From the NCBI GenBank assembly GCA_045648865.1, contig JAZROU010000020.1, positions 1 to 36,368 of the forward strand: DNA of 36,368 nt. The letters are read 5' to 3'. The stretch's first letter is position 1. Every line of letters starts with the position of its first letter. The notes below the pieces were generated by a model. That model had not been told where the DNA came from. It ran no database searches and saw only the letters and a list, made by a program, of their open reading frames with translations. A program made the position numbers and the translations under genes. Of this stretch, positions 1,480-28,426 are shown piece by piece. Source of the DNA: Candidatus Enterousia sp. (GTDB lineage Bacteria; Pseudomonadota; Alphaproteobacteria; Rs-D84).

Positions 1480-2490
1480 ATGAACGAAAAGTTTGTGGAC
1501 TTTATTCAAAATTTTTCTGGTCAACATCTGGCTGTGGCGGTCAGTGGTGGCGTTGATTCGATTTGTTTATTGCATTGGTTGTGCGCGACAAAAATGAACA
1601 TTGTTGCATTGCATGTTCATCATCATTTGCGCGACGGTGCAGACGTCGAAGCCGACTATGTATCCCGTACATGCAAAGCGTTGGGTGTCCCATGTCATGT
1701 CTTTCATTGGGTGGATGAAAAGCCCACCACCGGTATCGAGGCTGCTGCCCGCACCGCCAGGTATAAGTTCATGACAGATTTTTGTCGCCAAAACAATATC
1801 GACGCCCTGATGATTGCGCACCAGGCCGATGATCAAATTGAAACATTTTTAATGAATCTGGCGCGTGGCAGCGGCGTTGTCGGATTGGCTGGGATGCAGA
1901 CTGTTTCGTATCGCGACGGTGTAAAAATTGTTCGCCCGCTGTTAAATGTTTTTCGGCATGAACTGATTGGGTACTGTAAAAAAAACAACATTATGTATTT
2001 TGACGATGAAATGAATTTTGACACAAAATATACACGTGTAAAAATTCGTCAAAACAGACATTTGCTGTCAGACAAACTTGGTATATCTGATGACAGGATT
2101 TTATTGGCCATCAATAATTTATCGCGTGCGCGTGACGCCTTGGAAAATGATGTTTCGAACCGTGTCAACAGTGTTCTGTACGATGGCTATGCGTTATTTT
2201 CAGATTCTTTTCTATTTGACGTCCCGCCCCATATTGGTTTAAAGTTTCTGGGAATGTTAATCCAGACTGTTGGGGGGGGCGAATATCAACCGCGCTTGAA
2301 TTCGTTAAATTACGCACTAAGTAAATTGCACGACAATTGTCAATTTACGTTGGGGCATTGCACAATTCGGCGTTTCGGCGATCAGATTTTGATTGTCCCC
2401 GAAGGCACAAAAACAAGTATCAGGAAGAAAAATGAAAAAATTAAAAGACTTCAAAAAAAACAAATCAGCAAACAGCCAAAATCGTCATGA
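1480..2490 (+). CDS. tilS: tRNA(Ile)-lysidine synthetase (short form)
   Basis: PP-loop AVSGGVDS, EAAARTARY, AHQADDQIETFLMNLARGSG, VRPLL; located directly upstream of ftsH. Confidence 0.93.
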   Translation: MNEKFVDFIQNFSGQHLAVAVSGGVDSICLLHWLCATKMNIVALHVHHHLRDGADVEADYVSRTCKALGVPCHVFHWVDEKPTTGIEAAARTARYKFMTDFCRQNNIDALMIAHQADDQIETFLMNLARGSGVVGLAGMQTVSYRDGVKIVRPLLNVFRHELIGYCKKNNIMYFDDEMNFDTKYTRVKIRQNRHLLSDKLGISDDRILLAINNLSRARDALENDVSNRVNSVLYDGYALFSDSFLFDVPPHIGLKFLGMLIQTVGGGEYQPRLNSLNYALSKLHDNCQFTLGHCTIRRFGDQILIVPEGTKTSIRKKNEKIKRLQKKQISKQPKSS

Positions 2491-4360
2491 TGGTGCGAAT
2501 TGGTTCTTAATGATTGCCGGCGCAGTTTTTGTTGCGTTGGTGGCGCGCATTCTTTTATTTGGCGGTTTTGCGACGAATGTGACCCCAAATCTTTCCGCCA
2601 CCCCCCAGGCAAAGCCTGTTGTGTTGTCTTTTTCAGACATTTTGCGTCGTGCGCCTGAAATCGAAACCATGAAAATTAACGGTAATGATGCCAGTGGCAC
2701 ATTATCTGATGGAACAAAATATACTGCGACAATTACATATGATCCAGAAATGCTGGCGAAATTATCTGAATCTGGCACTGCGATTACAATTGATACATCG
2801 CGTGGCTGGCTGGACACGGTTGCGACATTTGCGCCACTTGCATTGACATTGTTGTTTATATTCTGGATTTTGCGTGGATTTCGTCGTGGCGGTGCCGCCG
2901 GCGGAATCAGTCGCAGTTTAATCGGTCAAAATCCGACCAAGATTGCCACGGGCAAACCTAAAACAACATTCGCAGATGTTGCAGGTATTGATTCTGAAAA
3001 GCAAGAATTATCAGAAATCGTGGACTTTTTGAAAAACAAAGACAAATACAAATCATTGGGCGCACGTGTTCCGCGCGGCGTCCTGTTATCTGGCCAGCCT
3101 GGAACCGGTAAAACATTGCTGGCGCGCGCCATCGCAGGCGAAGCAAACGTCCCATTCTTTGCAGCATCTGGGTCTGATTTCTCTGGCATTATTGTCGGTC
3201 TGGGGGTCGCAAAAATCAAAGAGATTTTTGAAATGGCAAAACGCAATGCCCCATGTATCCTGTTTATTGATGAAATTGATGCAATTGGTCAAAAGCGTTC
3301 AACCCATTCATACAATGACCAAGATCGCGAACAGACGTTAAATCAATTGTTGATTGAAATGGATGGTTTTGCCAACGATACTGGTATCATTGTAATTGGT
3401 GCGACAAACCGTGTTGACATGCTGGACGCTGCATTGTTGCGTCCTGGGCGATTTGACCGCCAGGTTTACATCGAATTACCTGATATGGCGGGGCGCCGTG
3501 AAATACTGGATTTATACGCAAAACGCGTCAAGATTGATGAAACGGTAAATCTGCAGGATATTGCGCGTGGCACAACCGGTTTTTCAGGCGCAGATTTGGA
3601 AAATTTGTTGAACGAGGCCGCCCTGCATGCGGTTCGCAATGGGCGTGATAAAATTGTTCCAGACGATATCGAAGAAGCGCGCGATAAAATTATAATGGGC
3701 CCGCGCAAGATTCGCAAAATGCGCCCCGAAGATATAAAACTGACCGCGTATCACGAAGCGGGGCATGCATTTGTCAGCATGATGTACGAAGGTGTTGCAG
3801 ACCCGATACACAAGGCGACAATCATCCCACGTGGTCGTGCATTGGGTATGGTCCAGCATTTGCCGATTGATGACAAGGTTTCTATGACCCTGGCCGAGGT
3901 TCGGGCCAACCTGTCAATTGCGTTGGCGGGTCGTTGCGCCGAAGAAATTTTCTTTGGCCCAGACAAGATTACCACTGGTGCGGAAAGTGATATCGCATCT
4001 GCAACACACCTGGCGCGTTATTCTATAACAACGGCAGGCTTGTCAAAGCGGGTTGGTCTGCCTGCAATCAACCAGGTCGGAACATTTGGTGTTCGTGGCG
4101 CATTGGAAAATGCATCTGAAAAAACGGCAGAATTGGTTGACGCGGAAATACGTTCCTGGCTGGATGCGGCGCACGCGGATGCAACAAAACATTTGTCTAA
4201 AAATAAAAAGATTGTTGAAAAGTTGGCGAATGAATTGTTGACGCGCGAAACGCTGACCGGCGAAGAAATTCGCGAAATTATCCATGGCCCAGCGTCCAAG
4301 CCCATCCCCAAAAAAACACCAAGAAAACGTACCAATGCAACAAAAACTAAGAAACAATAA
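2432..4360 (+). CDS. ftsH: ATP-dependent zinc metalloprotease FtsH
   Basis: Two TM segments, Walker A GQPGTGKT, Walker B FIDEID, SRH ALLRPGRFDR and HEAGH zinc motif. ATG 2432 (AGGA upstream) is preferred to TTG 2393. Confidence 0.96.
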   Translation: MKKLKDFKKNKSANSQNRHDGANWFLMIAGAVFVALVARILLFGGFATNVTPNLSATPQAKPVVLSFSDILRRAPEIETMKINGNDASGTLSDGTKYTATITYDPEMLAKLSESGTAITIDTSRGWLDTVATFAPLALTLLFIFWILRGFRRGGAAGGISRSLIGQNPTKIATGKPKTTFADVAGIDSEKQELSEIVDFLKNKDKYKSLGARVPRGVLLSGQPGTGKTLLARAIAGEANVPFFAASGSDFSGIIVGLGVAKIKEIFEMAKRNAPCILFIDEIDAIGQKRSTHSYNDQDREQTLNQLLIEMDGFANDTGIIVIGATNRVDMLDAALLRPGRFDRQVYIELPDMAGRREILDLYAKRVKIDETVNLQDIARGTTGFSGADLENLLNEAALHAVRNGRDKIVPDDIEEARDKIIMGPRKIRKMRPEDIKLTAYHEAGHAFVSMMYEGVADPIHKATIIPRGRALGMVQHLPIDDKVSMTLAEVRANLSIALAGRCAEEIFFGPDKITTGAESDIASATHLARYSITTAGLSKRVGLPAINQVGTFGVRGALENASEKTAELVDAEIRSWLDAAHADATKHLSKNKKIVEKLANELLTRETLTGEEIREIIHGPASKPIPKKTPRKRTNATKTKKQ

Positions 4361-6135: not shown

Positions 6136-6925
6136 TTTTAGATGTACCAATTCCGCGTTTTGAACGATTCTCAATAAAGTCAATTGCATCCATTGCGTAT
6201 TTATTATTTTTTACTTCTTTTCTGACCTTGGCCAATCGTTCTGATACGGTTCCTTCGCCCCCATTAAATACGGCGGCATATACAGAATGTATTGCGTGCA
6301 TATCTTCGTTTGTAAATCCATGGCGCATTAATCCGACGCGGTTAATTGTCCGATAAACTGCGCGTGGGCTGCCATCATAAATTGCGTATGGTAAAACGTC
6401 ATTGCCAACACCGGACATGCCACCAATAAATGCATTGCGTCCTATGCGCGCAAATTGCAGAACCATTGCACCACCACTTATGATTGCGAAATCTTCAACC
6501 TCTACATGCCCGGCCAGTTGAACCAGGTTTGACATAACGACGCTGTTGCCGACGCGACAATCGTGTGCAACGTGAGCATTTACCATAATTTGGCAATCGT
6601 CCCCGATAACTGTGCCATCTGACGCAGGGGTTCCAGAATGAATTGTTGCATATTCGCGAATTTTACAGCGTTTACCAATGCGAACGCCTGTCATTGTTGC
6701 TTCATCCTGCCATTTTAAATCCTGGCTCATAACGCCAACGACAGCAAAAGGATAAATAATAGAGTCGTCACCCACTGATGTTTTGCCATCAATAACGACA
6801 TGTGAAACCAGTTCTACACGGTCCCCCAGAACCACGTCTGCGCCCACAATACAATATGGACCAATTTTGCAATCTGCGCCCAATTTTGCGCCTTCATGAA
6901 TGATTGCCGTTGGATGTATTTGCAT
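6125..6925 (-). CDS. lpxA: UDP-N-acetylglucosamine O-acyltransferase
   Basis: IHPTAII hexapeptide repeats, QDLK, IREYATIHSGT, HVAHDC and a helical C-terminus ending SKRGI. Confidence 0.95.
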   Translation of the reverse strand: MQIHPTAIIHEGAKLGADCKIGPYCIVGADVVLGDRVELVSHVVIDGKTSVGDDSIIYPFAVVGVMSQDLKWQDEATMTGVRIGKRCKIREYATIHSGTPASDGTVIGDDCQIMVNAHVAHDCRVGNSVVMSNLVQLAGHVEVEDFAIISGGAMVLQFARIGRNAFIGGMSGVGNDVLPYAIYDGSPRAVYRTINRVGLMRHGFTNEDMHAIHSVYAAVFNGGEGTVSERLAKVRKEVKNNKYAMDAIDFIENRSKRGIGTSKNAE

Positions 6926-7006
6926 AATAAAACCCGTTTTTTTACATTTAACGGGTTGAATAATATATTAAAACGAAGATAAATTGTATTAAATAAATAT
7001 AACCAA

Positions 7007-7993
7007 TTATAACAAGCGCTTGCTTTCTGTCCAAAAATTTACATACGGAACGGTTGTCCAATACAGTATTCCGATTGCTGTAATCACAGGCATAACCGTG
7101 ATTGCGCCAAATGCCATCAGTGCGATTGAAAATATCTTATCACCTAATGCATCAAACTTTTTTTCTGCATGCCATACAGACATCGCGACAGATAAAAACA
7201 CAGCTGTCATTGTTCCAATGAAAATAGGTACTGCTTCGGTCAGCATAAACAGCGCGATCCCCAGCACACAAATAACACGCATTAACCATTTCAGTTTTAT
7301 ATAAACGCTGTGTCGAATTTTTGCGCGCGAATTTATATTTTGAATTGCGACTGTGGCCATACATGCACACCCCAGCCCCAATACCGCCATCAGGTGCAGC
7401 GTTGTCAGATGCCCCAGTTGTCCAAATCTAAAGAATTCCGGTTGCATCAGCATCGCAATCGCAACCATCATCATAATTAAAATTATTCCACCTGCGGGTC
7501 TCATTTTACCCTTGGCAATACGTCCCAGTACGCAGCCTGCCACAAACGCGCCAATCTGTAATATTGGTCCCCACCATGCATGCGTATCAGACATCCCAAC
7601 CGCCATCAGTATGAAAATCACAGCCACCCATCGCCGCCAGTTCATTTTTGGTAATGGCATATCGCGTAAATGCGATGAAATAAACAAAGTTGTTAAAAAC
7701 ACAATCATTGCAACCATTAACGGTAATACGGATAAAGTATCACGCAACACCGCGTAATTCCCACCAAACAGAACAATCCAAACACATGTCAAACCTGCAA
7801 TCCACAGTGAAGATTTATTCAGTATATTGTCGCTGGTCCATCCAATGCGTTTCAGAATTATATCGCTGCACCAAAATGTAATGATAAACAGTGGCAATGC
7901 CAGCCCCGTCCACCACAAAAATGCTGGCGCCCACAATGCTGCATTATTAAAAGCACTTACTGCACTTTCCACCACAATAAACTCGTTCAACAT
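7007..7993 (-). CDS. Polytopic membrane protein of unknown function (about 10 TM)
   Basis: Long ORF with many hydrophobic segments. ATG 7993 is preferred because the longer frame overlaps the divergent gene. No family recognised. Confidence 0.7.
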   Translation of the reverse strand: MLNEFIVVESAVSAFNNAALWAPAFLWWTGLALPLFIITFWCSDIILKRIGWTSDNILNKSSLWIAGLTCVWIVLFGGNYAVLRDTLSVLPLMVAMIVFLTTLFISSHLRDMPLPKMNWRRWVAVIFILMAVGMSDTHAWWGPILQIGAFVAGCVLGRIAKGKMRPAGGIILIMMMVAIAMLMQPEFFRFGQLGHLTTLHLMAVLGLGCACMATVAIQNINSRAKIRHSVYIKLKWLMRVICVLGIALFMLTEAVPIFIGTMTAVFLSVAMSVWHAEKKFDALGDKIFSIALMAFGAITVMPVITAIGILYWTTVPYVNFWTESKRLL

Positions 7994-24004: not shown

Positions 24005-25279
24005 ATGTTTGAAAACGTAAAACCAATCTTGAACGCGACACAGATTTCTGCATTTGATGCGATTGAGCACACGAATTCTAATCTGTTGATATTGGGGCCG
24101 GCCGGAACCGGAAAATCAACATTTGTAAACTATCTGAAAAGTGCATCGAAAAAGCGTATTGTCTGTGCGTGTCCCACGGCGGTATCTGCATTAAATGTTG
24201 GTGGTCAAACAATTCACTCATTATTTCAGATTCAGCCACGCGATTTTATTATGCCAGAATTTTTAAAGCTAAAGGCCAAGCCACGCAATATTCTGGCAGC
24301 AACGGATGTCTTGATTGTTGATGAAATATCAATGGTTGCCCCAGATTTGTTGGACGCGATTGATATATTGGCGCGTATGGCGCGTCATAACAACGAACCA
24401 TTTGGTGGAATTCAAATCGTGGCCATCGGCGACCTGTTCCAGTTGCCCCCTGTGATAACACGCGAAGCGACCCAGTACTATGAATCTGAATACGGTCACC
24501 CGAATGCGTACTTTTTTGACAGCAATGTATACAAACGCGCAAACTTTATAAAATACAATTTTGATTTTGTTTATCGTCAAAATGATTTGCCATTATTGGA
24601 AAATCTGGTTCAGTTGCGTAACAACAATACGACCAGTCTAGAATTTTTTAACGCATGTAAAATTGCAGATGACACGCGTCGTGATAATGCGGTGCTAATA
24701 ACACCGTTTCGTGCGGTCGCCGAACGTATAAATGCAACGCGTTTGGCGCAAATAAATGAAACATCGGTTGTATATAATGGTGTTTTATCTGGTAATTTTT
24801 CTGAACGCGATGTCCCCGCGCCCCTGGCACTGGAATTAAAGGTTGGTGCACTGGTTGTCTTTGTTAAAAATGGTGACAAATGGCACAATGGATCGATGGG
24901 TTTGGTTCGTAATTTGTCCGCGCGTGAAATTGTCGTTCAGTTATTGTCAGATTCGCGCGACCTGGTGTCTGTTAAGCCTGATAAATGGGAAAAAATAGAA
25001 TATTCGCGCGATGAAAACGATCGTCTGGTTGAAAACGAAGTCGGCGCTTATAAGCAATTTCCATTAAGTCTTGGTTATGCAATGACGATACACCGTGCCC
25101 AGGGAAAAACGCTGGATGCGGTTGTGGTCGATATTTCGCGTGGTGCATTTGCGCACGGCCAGGTATATGTTGCGCTGTCGCGCACGCGGCGCGCATCTGA
25201 TATGCATATCGCATCACCGTTGCGTCCACGTGATGTTATTTTTGACGGGCGTGTACTGGATTTTATAAACGCTTTATAG
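24005..25279 (+). CDS. Pif1/RecD-like SF1B DNA helicase
   Basis: GPAGTGKS, DEISMV, GDLFQLPPV, YRQ, PLSLGYAMTIHRAQGKTLD and GQVYVALSR. Confidence 0.9.
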   Translation: MFENVKPILNATQISAFDAIEHTNSNLLILGPAGTGKSTFVNYLKSASKKRIVCACPTAVSALNVGGQTIHSLFQIQPRDFIMPEFLKLKAKPRNILAATDVLIVDEISMVAPDLLDAIDILARMARHNNEPFGGIQIVAIGDLFQLPPVITREATQYYESEYGHPNAYFFDSNVYKRANFIKYNFDFVYRQNDLPLLENLVQLRNNNTTSLEFFNACKIADDTRRDNAVLITPFRAVAERINATRLAQINETSVVYNGVLSGNFSERDVPAPLALELKVGALVVFVKNGDKWHNGSMGLVRNLSAREIVVQLLSDSRDLVSVKPDKWEKIEYSRDENDRLVENEVGAYKQFPLSLGYAMTIHRAQGKTLDAVVVDISRGAFAHGQVYVALSRTRRASDMHIASPLRPRDVIFDGRVLDFINAL

Positions 25280-25660: not shown

Positions 25661-26018
25661 TATGTTTGTCTGCCATATATATTTCCAACATTTTTTTATA
25701 AACCTTTTGCGCGAACTGTGTGTCAAATTCGCGATGTGTTGGATTGTTAATATCATCTGACGGATACACACTCAACACAAAATATGTTGCAGGCATCAGC
25801 GATGCTTCTAATTTTTCCTCGTATTCACGATCGGCTTCAATTTTTATTCCATTCCCAATTACAGAGAATTTATTGCTGGAACGATTAAATATACGATTTG
25901 TTTTGTATTGTGTTTCTGTCCAATTGCGTGAATCGCGTTTTATACTATATGCCTCAATGGTTTTTAGTATATTTAATTTATATCTAGATAAAAACAATCT
26001 TTCAAATAAGTTTGGCAT
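25650..26018 (-). CDS. Hypothetical protein (122 aa) between tsaB and rimI
   Basis: AT-rich ORF that fills the gap exactly: 5 nt after the tsaB stop, overlaps the rimI start, SD GAGGG. Confidence 0.7.
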   Translation of the reverse strand: MPNLFERLFLSRYKLNILKTIEAYSIKRDSRNWTETQYKTNRIFNRSSNKFSVIGNGIKIEADREYEEKLEASLMPATYFVLSVYPSDDINNPTHREFDTQFAQKVYKKMLEIYMADKHNAR

Positions 26019-26023
26019 TATAT

Positions 26024-26569
26024 TTATCCCTCTTTTTTATTTTGTTCTGCATAACTTGGGCGCAAATACATTGGCGCCACAGGTTCAATTTTATTATTTG
26101 CGATTTTATCGCACACGATTTTTACTCCCTGCCGCAAATCAAATGGTTTGTGTCCAACGGTACGTGGCCATTCCATCTGTTTTGTCTCTAATTGATCGAT
26201 CACCATTGTTTGTGGCGCCAGTCCGTCTGCTGCGACGAAAAAGTCGCCACGTCCAGAATCCAAAGCTACGAATGCATCTGGTGTTTGTGCCAGATACAGG
26301 TCAAACGCACTGATTCCAACGACTGGTATCTTTAACCCCATCGCCAATCCCTTTGCGTACGCGATACCCAGACGTATTCCGGTAAAGCTGCCCGGTCCAA
26401 CGACAACACCAATGGCTGAAATATCTGACCATGTTGCCCCAGATTCGGTGATAAATTTTTCGCATTCTACCGGCAACGCAACAGATTGTTTTTCCACCAC
26501 GATGGATTTATATTTATCATCTAATACAAACTCTAAATCCTTGCCTGATGTATTAATAATTAAAATCAT
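26024..26569 (-). CDS. tsaB: t6A37 threonylcarbamoyltransferase complex subunit TsaB
   Basis: LIINTS, VVVGPGSFTGIRLGIAYAKGLA and C-terminal PMYLRPS. Confidence 0.93.
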   Translation of the reverse strand: MILIINTSGKDLEFVLDDKYKSIVVEKQSVALPVECEKFITESGATWSDISAIGVVVGPGSFTGIRLGIAYAKGLAMGLKIPVVGISAFDLYLAQTPDAFVALDSGRGDFFVAADGLAPQTMVIDQLETKQMEWPRTVGHKPFDLRQGVKIVCDKIANNKIEPVAPMYLRPSYAEQNKKEG

Positions 26570-28329
26570 GCACGCACCCCAAATCCAATTTTTTTCGAAA
26601 ATCCCGCTGATTTACGCAATGACAATAATGCATCAATTTTCTGGGGGGTAAACTCAGTCTTGGTGTCGACACAATCATTTTCCAGCAACGAACGTCGTAA
26701 AATTGCGGTCAGTTCACGTTGGGCTTGGCGCACCCCTTGTTCTGATGTATAGTTCTGAATCAGGTGCCGTATCGCATCATCTGTTATAACGATATCATCT
26801 ACGTTCCATCCTGTGTCACGTGCGGCACGCCCAATTAAATGTTCGCGTGCGATTCTGATTTTATCATCCATTGAATAACCTGGGATTTCAATAATTTCCA
26901 TTCGGTCCTTCAGTGCATTTGACATATTCAGACTGTTAGCTGTTGCAATAAACATCACGTTTGACAGGTCAAAGTCCACTTCCAGATAATGATCGCGGAA
27001 TGTTTTGTTCTGTTCTGGGTCCAATATTTCCAACAGTGCAGATTCCGGATCGCCGCGCCAATCGCGCCCCATTTTATCAATTTCGTCCAGCACAATAACC
27101 GGATTGTTTGTTTTACAGCGTTTCAGTGCATCCATTATTCGTCCGGTCTGTGCGCCAATATACGTCTTGCGGTGACCACGGAAATGCGATTCATCTGAAA
27201 TGCCACCCAGTGAAATGCGCTGATATTTACGCCCCAACGCCATCGCGATTGATTTGCCCAGTGATGTCTTTCCAACACCCGGCGCCCCGACAAAGCACAG
27301 AATTGAACCCTGGTTTGATTTTGTCTTTTTCATGACGGCAATATGTTCCAAGATACGTTCTTTGACCGCATCCATGCCGGAATGTTCGCTGTCTAATACG
27401 GTTCGCGCATATTTTAAATCTATTTCTGATGCATCAGACTTACCCCACGGCATCGCCAACAATTCGTCCAGATATGTTTTTAACAATCCGCCTTCGTTTG
27501 ACATTGGTGACACAGAACGCATGCGTTTCCATTCTGTCATGGCTTTTTCTTTGGCGTCTGCGGGCATATCGGATTTTAAGATTTTCTTACGGATGTTCGC
27601 GGTATCTACCTCGCCATCATCTTCGCCCATTTCCTTTTGCAGGGCGCGCATTTTTTCTTGTAAAATTGCCTCGCGTCGGCCATTTTCCATTTGCTGATGT
27701 ATACGCTTGTTAATAGATTCTTCTATCTTTGCGGTTTCAATCATCAGTTTAACCGCTTCTAACAATATGGTCAGTTTTTGCCCCCAGCTGGTTGCTGCCA
27801 GAACCTTTACAGCTGTATCTGTATCAATATCTGCCGTTTGTATCACCGCATCTATCAGCGCGGGCAGGGGATAGTTATCAATTACATTGCGCAGTTTTTC
27901 CATCTTGAATTTGCGCGTTGACATGGCCAGCGTCTGCATATTATCTGCCAGAATATCGCGCAGAACAATTGTCTGTTCGGCATCCATATCGTCTGCGACC
28001 TTGATTGGTTCTGTCTGGCCTGTAAAGATTCCGTCGTTAATCTCAATATCTGTTATTGATACCGCGTCGGTTGTTTTTACCAACAGGTGAACGGCCCCAT
28101 CTGGCATAGTTAGCACCTGGACAACGTCACCAATTGTACCGACTGTATAAATATCATCTATGCTGGACGGATATGCCCAACTGTGTTGTGGCACCAGCAC
28201 CAATTTCTGCTGTCCGGCATTCGCAGCGGTTTTTATACAGTTAACAGACATATGGTTATCGACCAGCACCGGCACAGTCAGTCCTGGGGATACAACCAAA
28301 TCACGAAAAGGCAAAATATAATTCTTCAT
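26566..28329 (-). CDS. Lon-family N-domain + AAA+ protein lacking the protease domain
   Basis: LPFRDLVV (Lon N), H.GM..VKERILE, GAPGVGKTS, GHRKTYIGA, LDEIDK, GDPESALLEILDPEQN..FRDHYLE, TAN, DRME and GVRQ. It stops at 587 aa with no PKDGPSAG protease motif. Confidence 0.9.
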   Translation of the reverse strand: MKNYILPFRDLVVSPGLTVPVLVDNHMSVNCIKTAANAGQQKLVLVPQHSWAYPSSIDDIYTVGTIGDVVQVLTMPDGAVHLLVKTTDAVSITDIEINDGIFTGQTEPIKVADDMDAEQTIVLRDILADNMQTLAMSTRKFKMEKLRNVIDNYPLPALIDAVIQTADIDTDTAVKVLAATSWGQKLTILLEAVKLMIETAKIEESINKRIHQQMENGRREAILQEKMRALQKEMGEDDGEVDTANIRKKILKSDMPADAKEKAMTEWKRMRSVSPMSNEGGLLKTYLDELLAMPWGKSDASEIDLKYARTVLDSEHSGMDAVKERILEHIAVMKKTKSNQGSILCFVGAPGVGKTSLGKSIAMALGRKYQRISLGGISDESHFRGHRKTYIGAQTGRIMDALKRCKTNNPVIVLDEIDKMGRDWRGDPESALLEILDPEQNKTFRDHYLEVDFDLSNVMFIATANSLNMSNALKDRMEIIEIPGYSMDDKIRIAREHLIGRAARDTGWNVDDIVITDDAIRHLIQNYTSEQGVRQAQRELTAILRRSLLENDCVDTKTEFTPQKIDALLSLRKSAGFSKKIGFGVRA

Positions 28330-28339
28330 AGCAGAACAA

Positions 28340-28367
28340 ATATAATATATTTTAATAACATTTCAAG
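28340..28367 (-). promoter_or_regulatory. Putative RpoH-type promoter of the lon-like operon
   Basis: Minus strand CTTGAA-N15-ATTATAT, same spacing as at groES; ends 10 nt before the ATG. Confidence 0.5.
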
Positions 28368-28397
28368 ATGAATAAAAATGATAAAGAATAAAAAAGC

Positions 28398-28426
28398 TTG
28401 ATTTTTCGGAAAAAAGCGTATAAACT
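28398..28426 (+). promoter_or_regulatory. Putative sigma70 promoter of rpsD
   Basis: TTGATT-17 nt-TAAACT followed by a GC-rich discriminator GTGCCCCG. Confidence 0.6.

Follow-up and report, generated by a model that had tools for sequence, protein, structure and literature searches.

A Lon-derived AAA+ protein without its protease domain ends in a ClpX-like IGF tail in Candidatus Enterousia and may dock on ClpP

What does a Lon become when its protease domain is lost and its motor is kept? The AAA+ proteases known to us are either fused, as in Lon and FtsH, or two-component, as in ClpXP, ClpAP, ClpCP and HslUV, and we know of no motor that has crossed between the two types. The question is raised by a gene in a stretch of 36,368 nucleotides from Candidatus Enterousia sp. 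(GenBank assembly GCA_045648865.1, contig JAZROU010000020.1), which was analysed as a whole and is called the window here. The gene encodes a LonA-derived AAA+ protein, LonDeltaP, in which the protease domain is missing and the chain ends in a short tail that carries the tripeptide Ile-Gly-Phe (IGF). An earlier note on this DNA had read the product as a protease-less Lon with a ClpX-like tail, and that reading is supported, because the checks on the relatives, on the tail and on the partner each came out in its favor. That LonDeltaP is a Lon-derived unfoldase docking on ClpP is judged, from sequence comparison and structural modeling, to have somewhat better than an even chance of being correct. 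The gene and its parts lie on the window as follows; pLDDT is the predicted local distance difference test score.

26566..28329, minus strand: lon-deltaP gene, encoding a LonA-derived AAA+ protein without a protease domain, 587 amino acids, stop codon included.
27751..28317, minus strand: Lon N-terminal substrate-binding domain, residues 5-193 (Pfam PF02190, E 9.4e-23).
26890..27300, minus strand: AAA+ ATPase core, residues 344-480 (Pfam PF00004).
27265-27288, minus strand: Walker A.
27160-27162, minus strand: pore-loop Tyr390.
27082-27087, minus strand: Walker B, D415/E416.
26686..26814, minus strand: Lon lid (alpha) subdomain, residues 506-548 (Pfam PF22667), with the last helix running to residue 573.
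26569..26610, minus strand: flexible C-terminal tail, residues 574-587 (AlphaFold2 pLDDT below 50, variable flanking positions).
26581..26589, minus strand: ATT GGA TTT, that is Ile581-Gly582-Phe583, with K or R before it (102/102 unique proteins, 105/105 DNA tails).
26566..26569, minus strand: ATGA overlap of the lon stop with the tsaB start.

The open reading frame closes with ...SAGFSKKIGFGVRA. Its translation contains the motifs GAPGVGKT, RKTYIG, LDEID, TAN, DRME and GVR, and together with the Pfam domains these bear out the earlier statement that a frame of 587 amino acids holds the Lon N-domain and all AAA+ motifs intact. Residues 5-548 correspond to residues 13-556 of the solved E. coli Lon 6u5z (E 2.7e-126). 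A Pfam search of the protein found no Lon_C domain (PF05362). The Lon equivalog TIGR00763 aligned at model positions 2-563 of 795 only and gave a score of 539.7, under the cut-off of 608.05, and the score for NF008053 was 454.2 against a cut-off of 891. On the defining domain, the S16 Ser-Lys protease, LonDeltaP is not a member of the Lon protease family. Nor does it belong to the ClpX or Hsp100 clades; the best Clp-family model was ClpA, with 36.1 bits against a cut-off of 993. Public annotation names the truncated proteins "AAA family ATPase" and, in one case, "ATP-dependent Lon protease". Across 36 truncated homologues (at least 48% identity) the Walker A segment G348-T355, the pore-loop Y390, the Walker B residues D415 and E416, N465 of sensor-1, the Arg finger R476 and R534 of sensor-2 are invariant. 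As read from the alignment, this residue pattern is that of a working translocase and not of a relic. With the N-domain and a constrained ATPase and pore loop retained, LonDeltaP is predicted still to grip and thread proteins.

Reduced genomes often hold gene remnants, and the most skeptical account of the locus would make it a pseudogene in decay, a gene broken by a frameshift or an artefact of assembly. The DNA itself argues otherwise. Positions 26000-28400 are covered without a break by a 34.6-kb DNA contig of another public run, and the junction of the lon stop with the tsaB start is crossed by a 1305-base contig of a third run, so that misassembly, which the earlier note had listed for checking, is answered by independent contigs across both the gene and the junction. 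The source assembly comprises 883,617 bases in 91 contigs, is 95.5% complete and has a G+C content of 43%; the window is its contig C20. A second lon gene was not found in this genome. Six-frame searches reading through stops gave no match to Lon_C in any frame of the source genome and none in the 101 genomes of the genus Enterousia that were searched (0/101). A protease domain hidden by a frameshift, by read-through or in a separate gene is ruled out by these empty searches. The earlier claim that no frameshifted protease domain was present agrees with this result, as does its observation of the overlap with tsaB: the plus strand reads TCAT at 26566-26569, which is ATGA on the minus strand, with the lon TGA at 26566-26568 and the tsaB ATG at 26567-26569. 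More than 100 species, down to 53% identity, have intact truncated frames of matching length, with catalytic ATPase residues that do not vary. Against such frames, with the junction crossed by independent contigs and no remnant of Lon_C in any genome frame, the pseudogene or artefact account is excluded.

The loss is shared far beyond this genome. A homologue was present in 146 of the 151 family genomes sampled. Lon_C was found in 2 of 91 family genomes versus 29 of 29 genomes from five other families of the order. The Lon was truncated in all 108 sampled genomes of the genus, with complete frames of about 585-647 amino acids that covered the query to residues 585-587; no full-length Lon was seen in these close relatives, where it might have betrayed a recent truncation. 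Truncated forms also occur in the genera g11-14, g16, g21, g23-25 and g28-30, with identities as low as 53%. Full-length Lon (769-808 amino acids, 46-50% identity) was confined to two deep genera of the family, g15 (genomes G151, G197 and G201) and g17 (G180). In the genomes of the other families a second, weak Lon_C-like match was observed, in a frame of about 460 amino acids whose size and position are as expected for RadA/Sms; no such second match was seen in any Enterousia genome sampled.

The history of the truncation was followed in a quick maximum-likelihood tree (IQ-TREE) of 47 sequences. These included 27 truncated alphaproteobacterial Lons (25 chosen from 115 truncated loci, and P0122 and P0123), 5 full-length Lons from the family, 6 from the order, and 5 truncated and 4 full-length Lons of Bacteroidales type. 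All truncated alphaproteobacterial Lons formed one clade, with a support of 100 in the Shimodaira-Hasegawa-like approximate likelihood ratio test (SH-aLRT), and this clade was sister to the full-length family members. By phylogeny LonDeltaP is a Lon, and on the same comparisons the truncation reads as ancient, fixed and selected, going back to an ancestor that most of the Enterousia family has in common. The order lon-tsaB-rimI also flanks the full-length lon of the sister genus g15, and since the same tsaB and rimI follow the gene there, the protease-coding part was deleted in place.

What was left at the end of the chain is short and disordered, and part of it does not change. The AlphaFold2 model of the LonDeltaP monomer has a mean pLDDT of 81.5; the last lid helix extends over residues 562-573, and residues 574-587 fall below 50. 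I581, G582 and F583 are 100% conserved in 102/102 unique truncated sequences, and positions 570-578 are 33-79% conserved. Locus L028, in which an upstream in-frame extension gives an open frame of 703 amino acids, was set aside from this count; it has the same motif at its end. At the level of DNA, 105/105 distinct tails keep IGF, with Ile written as ATT, ATC or ATA, Gly as all four GGN codons and Phe as TTT or TTC, and in every one of the 105 the preceding residue is K or R. The tail pattern is [K/R]-I-G-F-[G/S] in a flexible end of 14 residues. Because the IGF codons vary synonymously, selection acts on the peptide, and the conservation and purifying selection that the earlier note had asked after are both found at the tripeptide: it is invariant among the proteins and changes only synonymously among the DNA tails. 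A constraint from the ribosome-binding site of tsaB was considered as the cause of this conservation and rejected on account of the synonymous variation; it fails also since the motif is kept where other genes follow lon, in genomes G188 and G199, and in the second lineage described below.

The origin of the tail can be approached from the lid-protease junction. The sequence here is ...LLGVRKY-(about 11 residues)-[I/V]G[V/I]xNGL[S/A]W... in full-length relatives, and ...LLS-x-RK-(7 residues)-IGF-G-x-x-x-stop in the truncated forms. We infer that the tail consists of the old lid-protease linker together with the opening residues of strand beta-1 of the protease, in which F has taken the place of V/I. 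The automatic alignment of the junction places the tail ambiguously, and the homology of IGF with beta-1 is therefore called plausible and not more. It had been proposed earlier that the protease domain was replaced by an IGF tail. The loss and the tail both stand, but a foreign replacement is probably not what occurred, the tail being more probably a retained linker and beta-1 stub. Of 245 full-length Lons that were examined, the beta-1 motif was found in 211; x-G is followed by V in 167 of these, by I in 13, by L in 7 and by F in none. On this comparison, F at the tripeptide position is not an ancestral Lon feature. Among the collected Lon-like proteins of 540-640 amino acids, 128 of 134 end in a basic-h-G-F tail, where h is a hydrophobic residue; the other 6 are single, fragment-like sequences that end inside the lid or the first protease strands.

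Truncated Lons with such a tail were found a second time, outside the Alphaproteobacteria. An exhaustive representative search yielded P0162, a protein of 615 amino acids that is 39% identical to LonDeltaP and aligned through to the tail, and a follow-up search added P0272-P0275 (626-627 amino acids), which share 61-66% identity with P0162. Run assemblies are the only known source of the five, and full-length Lons of Bacteroidales (Muribaculaceae-type) come closest to them, at 57% identity. The five proteins end in ...F-G-[R/H]-V-G-F-S followed by 3-4 residues, with V, G, F and S invariant (5/5), at the place where the full-length Bacteroidales relatives have ...[P/T]-G-V-V-T-G-L-A-W. The tree groups them in a clade of their own (SH-aLRT 98), beside the Bacteroidales Lons and divided from the alphaproteobacterial Lons by a branch of 1.66 changes per site. 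Loss of the protease at one and the same structural point therefore took place in two Lon lineages that are unrelated; the element basic-h-G-F-[G/S] near the C-terminus, to judge by these sequences, arose convergently in the two. A metagenome scan for loci of the P0162 type gave 10 loci at 47-58% identity, of which 8 carry the protease-domain motif, one is a low-quality record and one is probably frameshifted. The ESM Atlas holds clusters with Lon-N and AAA, or AAA and Lon_lid, and no Lon_C, of 348-532 amino acids, from Verrucomicrobiota (151 members, about 508 amino acids) and candidate phyla (about 350 amino acids). These may be gene fragments or further protease-less Lons.

The likeness of the tail to ClpX directs attention to ClpP. 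In the source genome a canonical clpP-clpX pair lies on contig C87, with P0392 as the ClpX, so that the earlier note's check for clpP, clpX and a full-length lon turned up the two Clp genes and no second, full-length lon. Of 151 family genomes 149 encode ClpP, and the two in which it was missed are 92% and 54% complete; the catalytic residues S98, H123 and D172 of ClpP are invariant. Set side by side, the IGF loop of this genome's ClpX (RRGIGFGAHV) and the Lon tail (SKKIGFGVRA) share a core of five to six residues, IGFG[A/V], which basic residues precede. In the family as a whole the ClpX loop is R-x-G-IGFGA-[H/N]-V. G188, a deep-branching genome with a truncated Lon, has lonDeltaP, clpP and clpX on one strand (locus L177, contig G188:C60, 1632-7774): lonDeltaP at 1632-3428, clpP at 3692-4273, three small open reading frames without a Pfam match, and clpX at 6518-7774. 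From the end of lon to clpP there are 264 bases. Searches of the source genome found no homologue of HslV or the proteasome (PF00227) and no ClpA, and its only double-ring Clp ATPase is ClpB. This ClpB (G000:C15:2618-4672, plus strand) has 685 amino acids and lacks the N-terminal domain, with an alignment at positions 149-852 of the 853 of the ClpB model.

Three copies of ClpP were modeled with Lon residues 540-587, alongside three controls. The ClpP-tail model scored 0.55 (runs 0.53, 0.55 and 0.58) and the best of the three controls 0.01; the runs agreed in at least 61% of contacts and the partner pLDDT was at least 46. Of 80 solved complexes 58 reach the mark for such models, as do 2 of 110 mismatched pairs; at 0.60 or below it is reached by only 7 of the 80 and by both of the passing mismatches. 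The model thus lends weak support to the pairing of tail and ClpP. Modeling the tail with ClpP, as had been suggested earlier, set it well above the controls, but as a weak pass only.

The following sequence of events may be envisaged if LonDeltaP docks on ClpP. It starts from a LonA whose fused Ser-Lys protease was deleted in place, in an ancestor common to most of the Enterousia family. The product would be a hexameric AAA+ unfoldase whose Lon N-domain picks the substrates. Its chains would end at the point of entry into the LonA protease ring, on the pore-exit face, since LonA continues there into that ring. From this face six tails would reach into the hydrophobic clefts that lie between the subunits of ClpP, in the manner of the IGF loops of ClpX, and substrates would be threaded into ClpP, whose chamber would stand in for that of the lost protease. 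Together LonDeltaP and ClpP would make up a two-component Lon, with ClpP shared with ClpX, possibly in competition. The broader proposal is that LonDeltaP represents a new natural class of ClpP-activating unfoldases, which arose at least twice, in the Rs-D84 Alphaproteobacteria and in a Bacteroidales-like lineage, each time by deletion of the fused protease and conversion of a beta-1 stub into an h-G-F docking tail. From the sequences at hand, this may with equal probability be right or wrong.

Several observations weigh against docking on ClpP. The adjacency of lon and clpP was observed in a single genome, and the two genes are on different contigs in the window genome and in G199. ClpX is retained, so that ClpP already has a motor and was not orphaned. 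The I-G of the tail may be inherited from the [I/V]-G that opens protease strand beta-1, and only the F and the following G are clearly new in the alphaproteobacterial lineage. There are about 8 residues from the last lid helix to Ile581 in the AlphaFold2 model, with a 6:7 ring mismatch to cross, and the IGF loop of ClpX is longer than this stretch of the Lon tail. The model pass, being in the weak band, may only mirror memory of solved ClpX-ClpP interfaces. Much of this would suit a LonDeltaP that works alone, as an unfoldase or chaperone without a peptidase, which remodels or holds proteins or binds DNA, and whose IGF tail packs on the neighboring subunit to stabilize the hexamer or gates the pore exit. 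The conserved motor and N-domain, the service that ClpX already gives to ClpP, the possible descent of I-G from Lon's own beta-1 and the weakness of the model pass all fit this account; Lon also has chaperone-like roles that do not depend on proteolysis, and its protease ring has a role in hexamer stability. It is nevertheless rather unlikely, though to be taken seriously. It leaves unexplained why a new F appeared in both independent truncations when none of the 211 full-length Lons has it, and why the tail matches the organism's own ClpX loop over IGFG[A/V]; the tail, moreover, is predicted in the monomer model to be disordered and not packed.

A tail that docks elsewhere, on another peptidase, an adaptor or the co-transcribed TsaB, is improbable. 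The genome does encode a second, divergent CLP_protease-family protein of 229 amino acids, P0393 (G000:C75:2174-2860, minus strand; PF00574 E 5e-12, no NCBIfam match), and the ATGA overlap ties lon to tsaB. However, P0393 is patchy and fast-evolving: it occurs in 29 of 81 genus genomes, with 31-53% identity between species and an internal stop in two cases, and in none of the other truncated-Lon genera sampled. As an obligate partner it was rejected for this patchiness, and it is possibly a protease of mobile-element or phage type. The link to tsaB is not specific to the truncated form either, since the lon-tsaB-rimI order is ancestral, predates the truncation and is found around the full-length gene as well, and the tail is kept in G188 and G199 despite the other genes that follow lon there. 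As an alternative peptidase, HslV was not found in the source genome, and Lon_C was found neither there nor in the other 100 genus genomes sampled. Docking of LonDeltaP on ClpP is the reading preferred here.

Comparison with known systems brings out what would be unusual in such a pairing. LonDeltaP has the N-domain, the long helical region, the AAA+ module and the lid of LonA, as in E. coli Lon 6u5z, but in place of the S16 Ser-Lys domain it has a short, disordered IGF tail. Like ClpX, ClpA and ClpC it carries a hydrophobic-Gly-Phe tripeptide on a flexible element, with ClpP in the same genome. It differs from ClpX in belonging to another AAA+ clade, in bearing the motif on a C-terminal tail and not on an internal loop, and in having a Lon N-domain where ClpX has a zinc-binding domain. 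Protease-free chaperones of the ClpB type have no peptidase-docking tripeptide, whereas that of LonDeltaP is invariant. Hexamers of HslU on HslV, and of PAN or Mpa on the proteasome, insert their C-terminal tails into pockets between the peptidase subunits. The motifs and the peptidases of those systems differ from the ones considered here, and neither of these peptidases was found in the source genome.

The closest precedent is an engineered one. In the chimeras BAP and HAP, the IGL loop of ClpA was grafted into ClpB or Hsp104, which then worked with ClpP (PMC5540906). These constructs show that an IG[L/F] element can suffice for a foreign AAA+ ring to work with ClpP. They are laboratory products of the Hsp100 clade, whereas LonDeltaP is natural, Lon-derived and fixed in a family, and its tail was born with the loss of the fused protease. 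The literature covered, outside of which lay supplements and subscription journals, yielded no account of a Lon without its protease working with ClpP; this holds also for the papers on Enterousia and for a review of ClpP that was searched for Lon.

The surroundings of the gene add two features of the window.

26024..26569, minus strand: tsaB-like gene directly downstream of lon.
28339..28366, minus strand: match to a sigma-70-like promoter (TTGAAA-16-TATATT), by consensus only, immediately upstream of the start of lon.

Sigma-70-like sites are not significant as a class: there are 8 of them, where shuffles lead one to expect 9.2. From two RNA-library runs of a single study came short contigs only, which cover parts of 26726-28066 and do not include the tail of LonDeltaP; because such libraries can hold DNA, no expression of lon-deltaP is claimed. 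Just past the rimI end of the lon-tsaB-rimI operon, on the opposite strand, an open reading frame of 424 amino acids (24005-25279, plus strand) has the P-loop GPAGTGKS and helicase-like motifs and resembles a RecD/Pif1-type helicase. The strongest AAA-family match of the genome (152.9 bits) is also in the window, at 3080-3475 on the plus strand, in an open frame of 655 amino acids that is probably FtsH. This would be the only other ATP-dependent protease seen besides ClpXP.

Near-identical loci come from the guts of ruminants and other animals. Enterousia, of the order Rs-D84, are gut symbionts with genomes of less than 1 Mb, little biosynthesis and a probably partner-dependent lifestyle, and the available part of the paper that describes their genomes makes no mention of Lon or Clp (PMC12306168). 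Should LonDeltaP dock on ClpP, it would be the first natural crossing from a fused to a two-component AAA+ protease and the natural counterpart of the BAP and HAP chimeras. ClpP would gain a partner that bears the substrate-recognition domain of Lon, by which Lon-type selection would be wired to the ClpP chamber, and the partners of ClpP would no longer be confined to ClpX and the Hsp100 clades. Should the tail serve self-assembly instead, it would show how a Lon ring is held together without its protease platform. The family offers a clean evolutionary experiment, with fused and unfused forms in sister genera, in the same gene neighborhood, and a second lineage that converged on the same end. 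The finding also bears on the economy of proteolysis in very small genomes, those of less than 1 Mb, such as these gut symbionts possess (PMC12306168).

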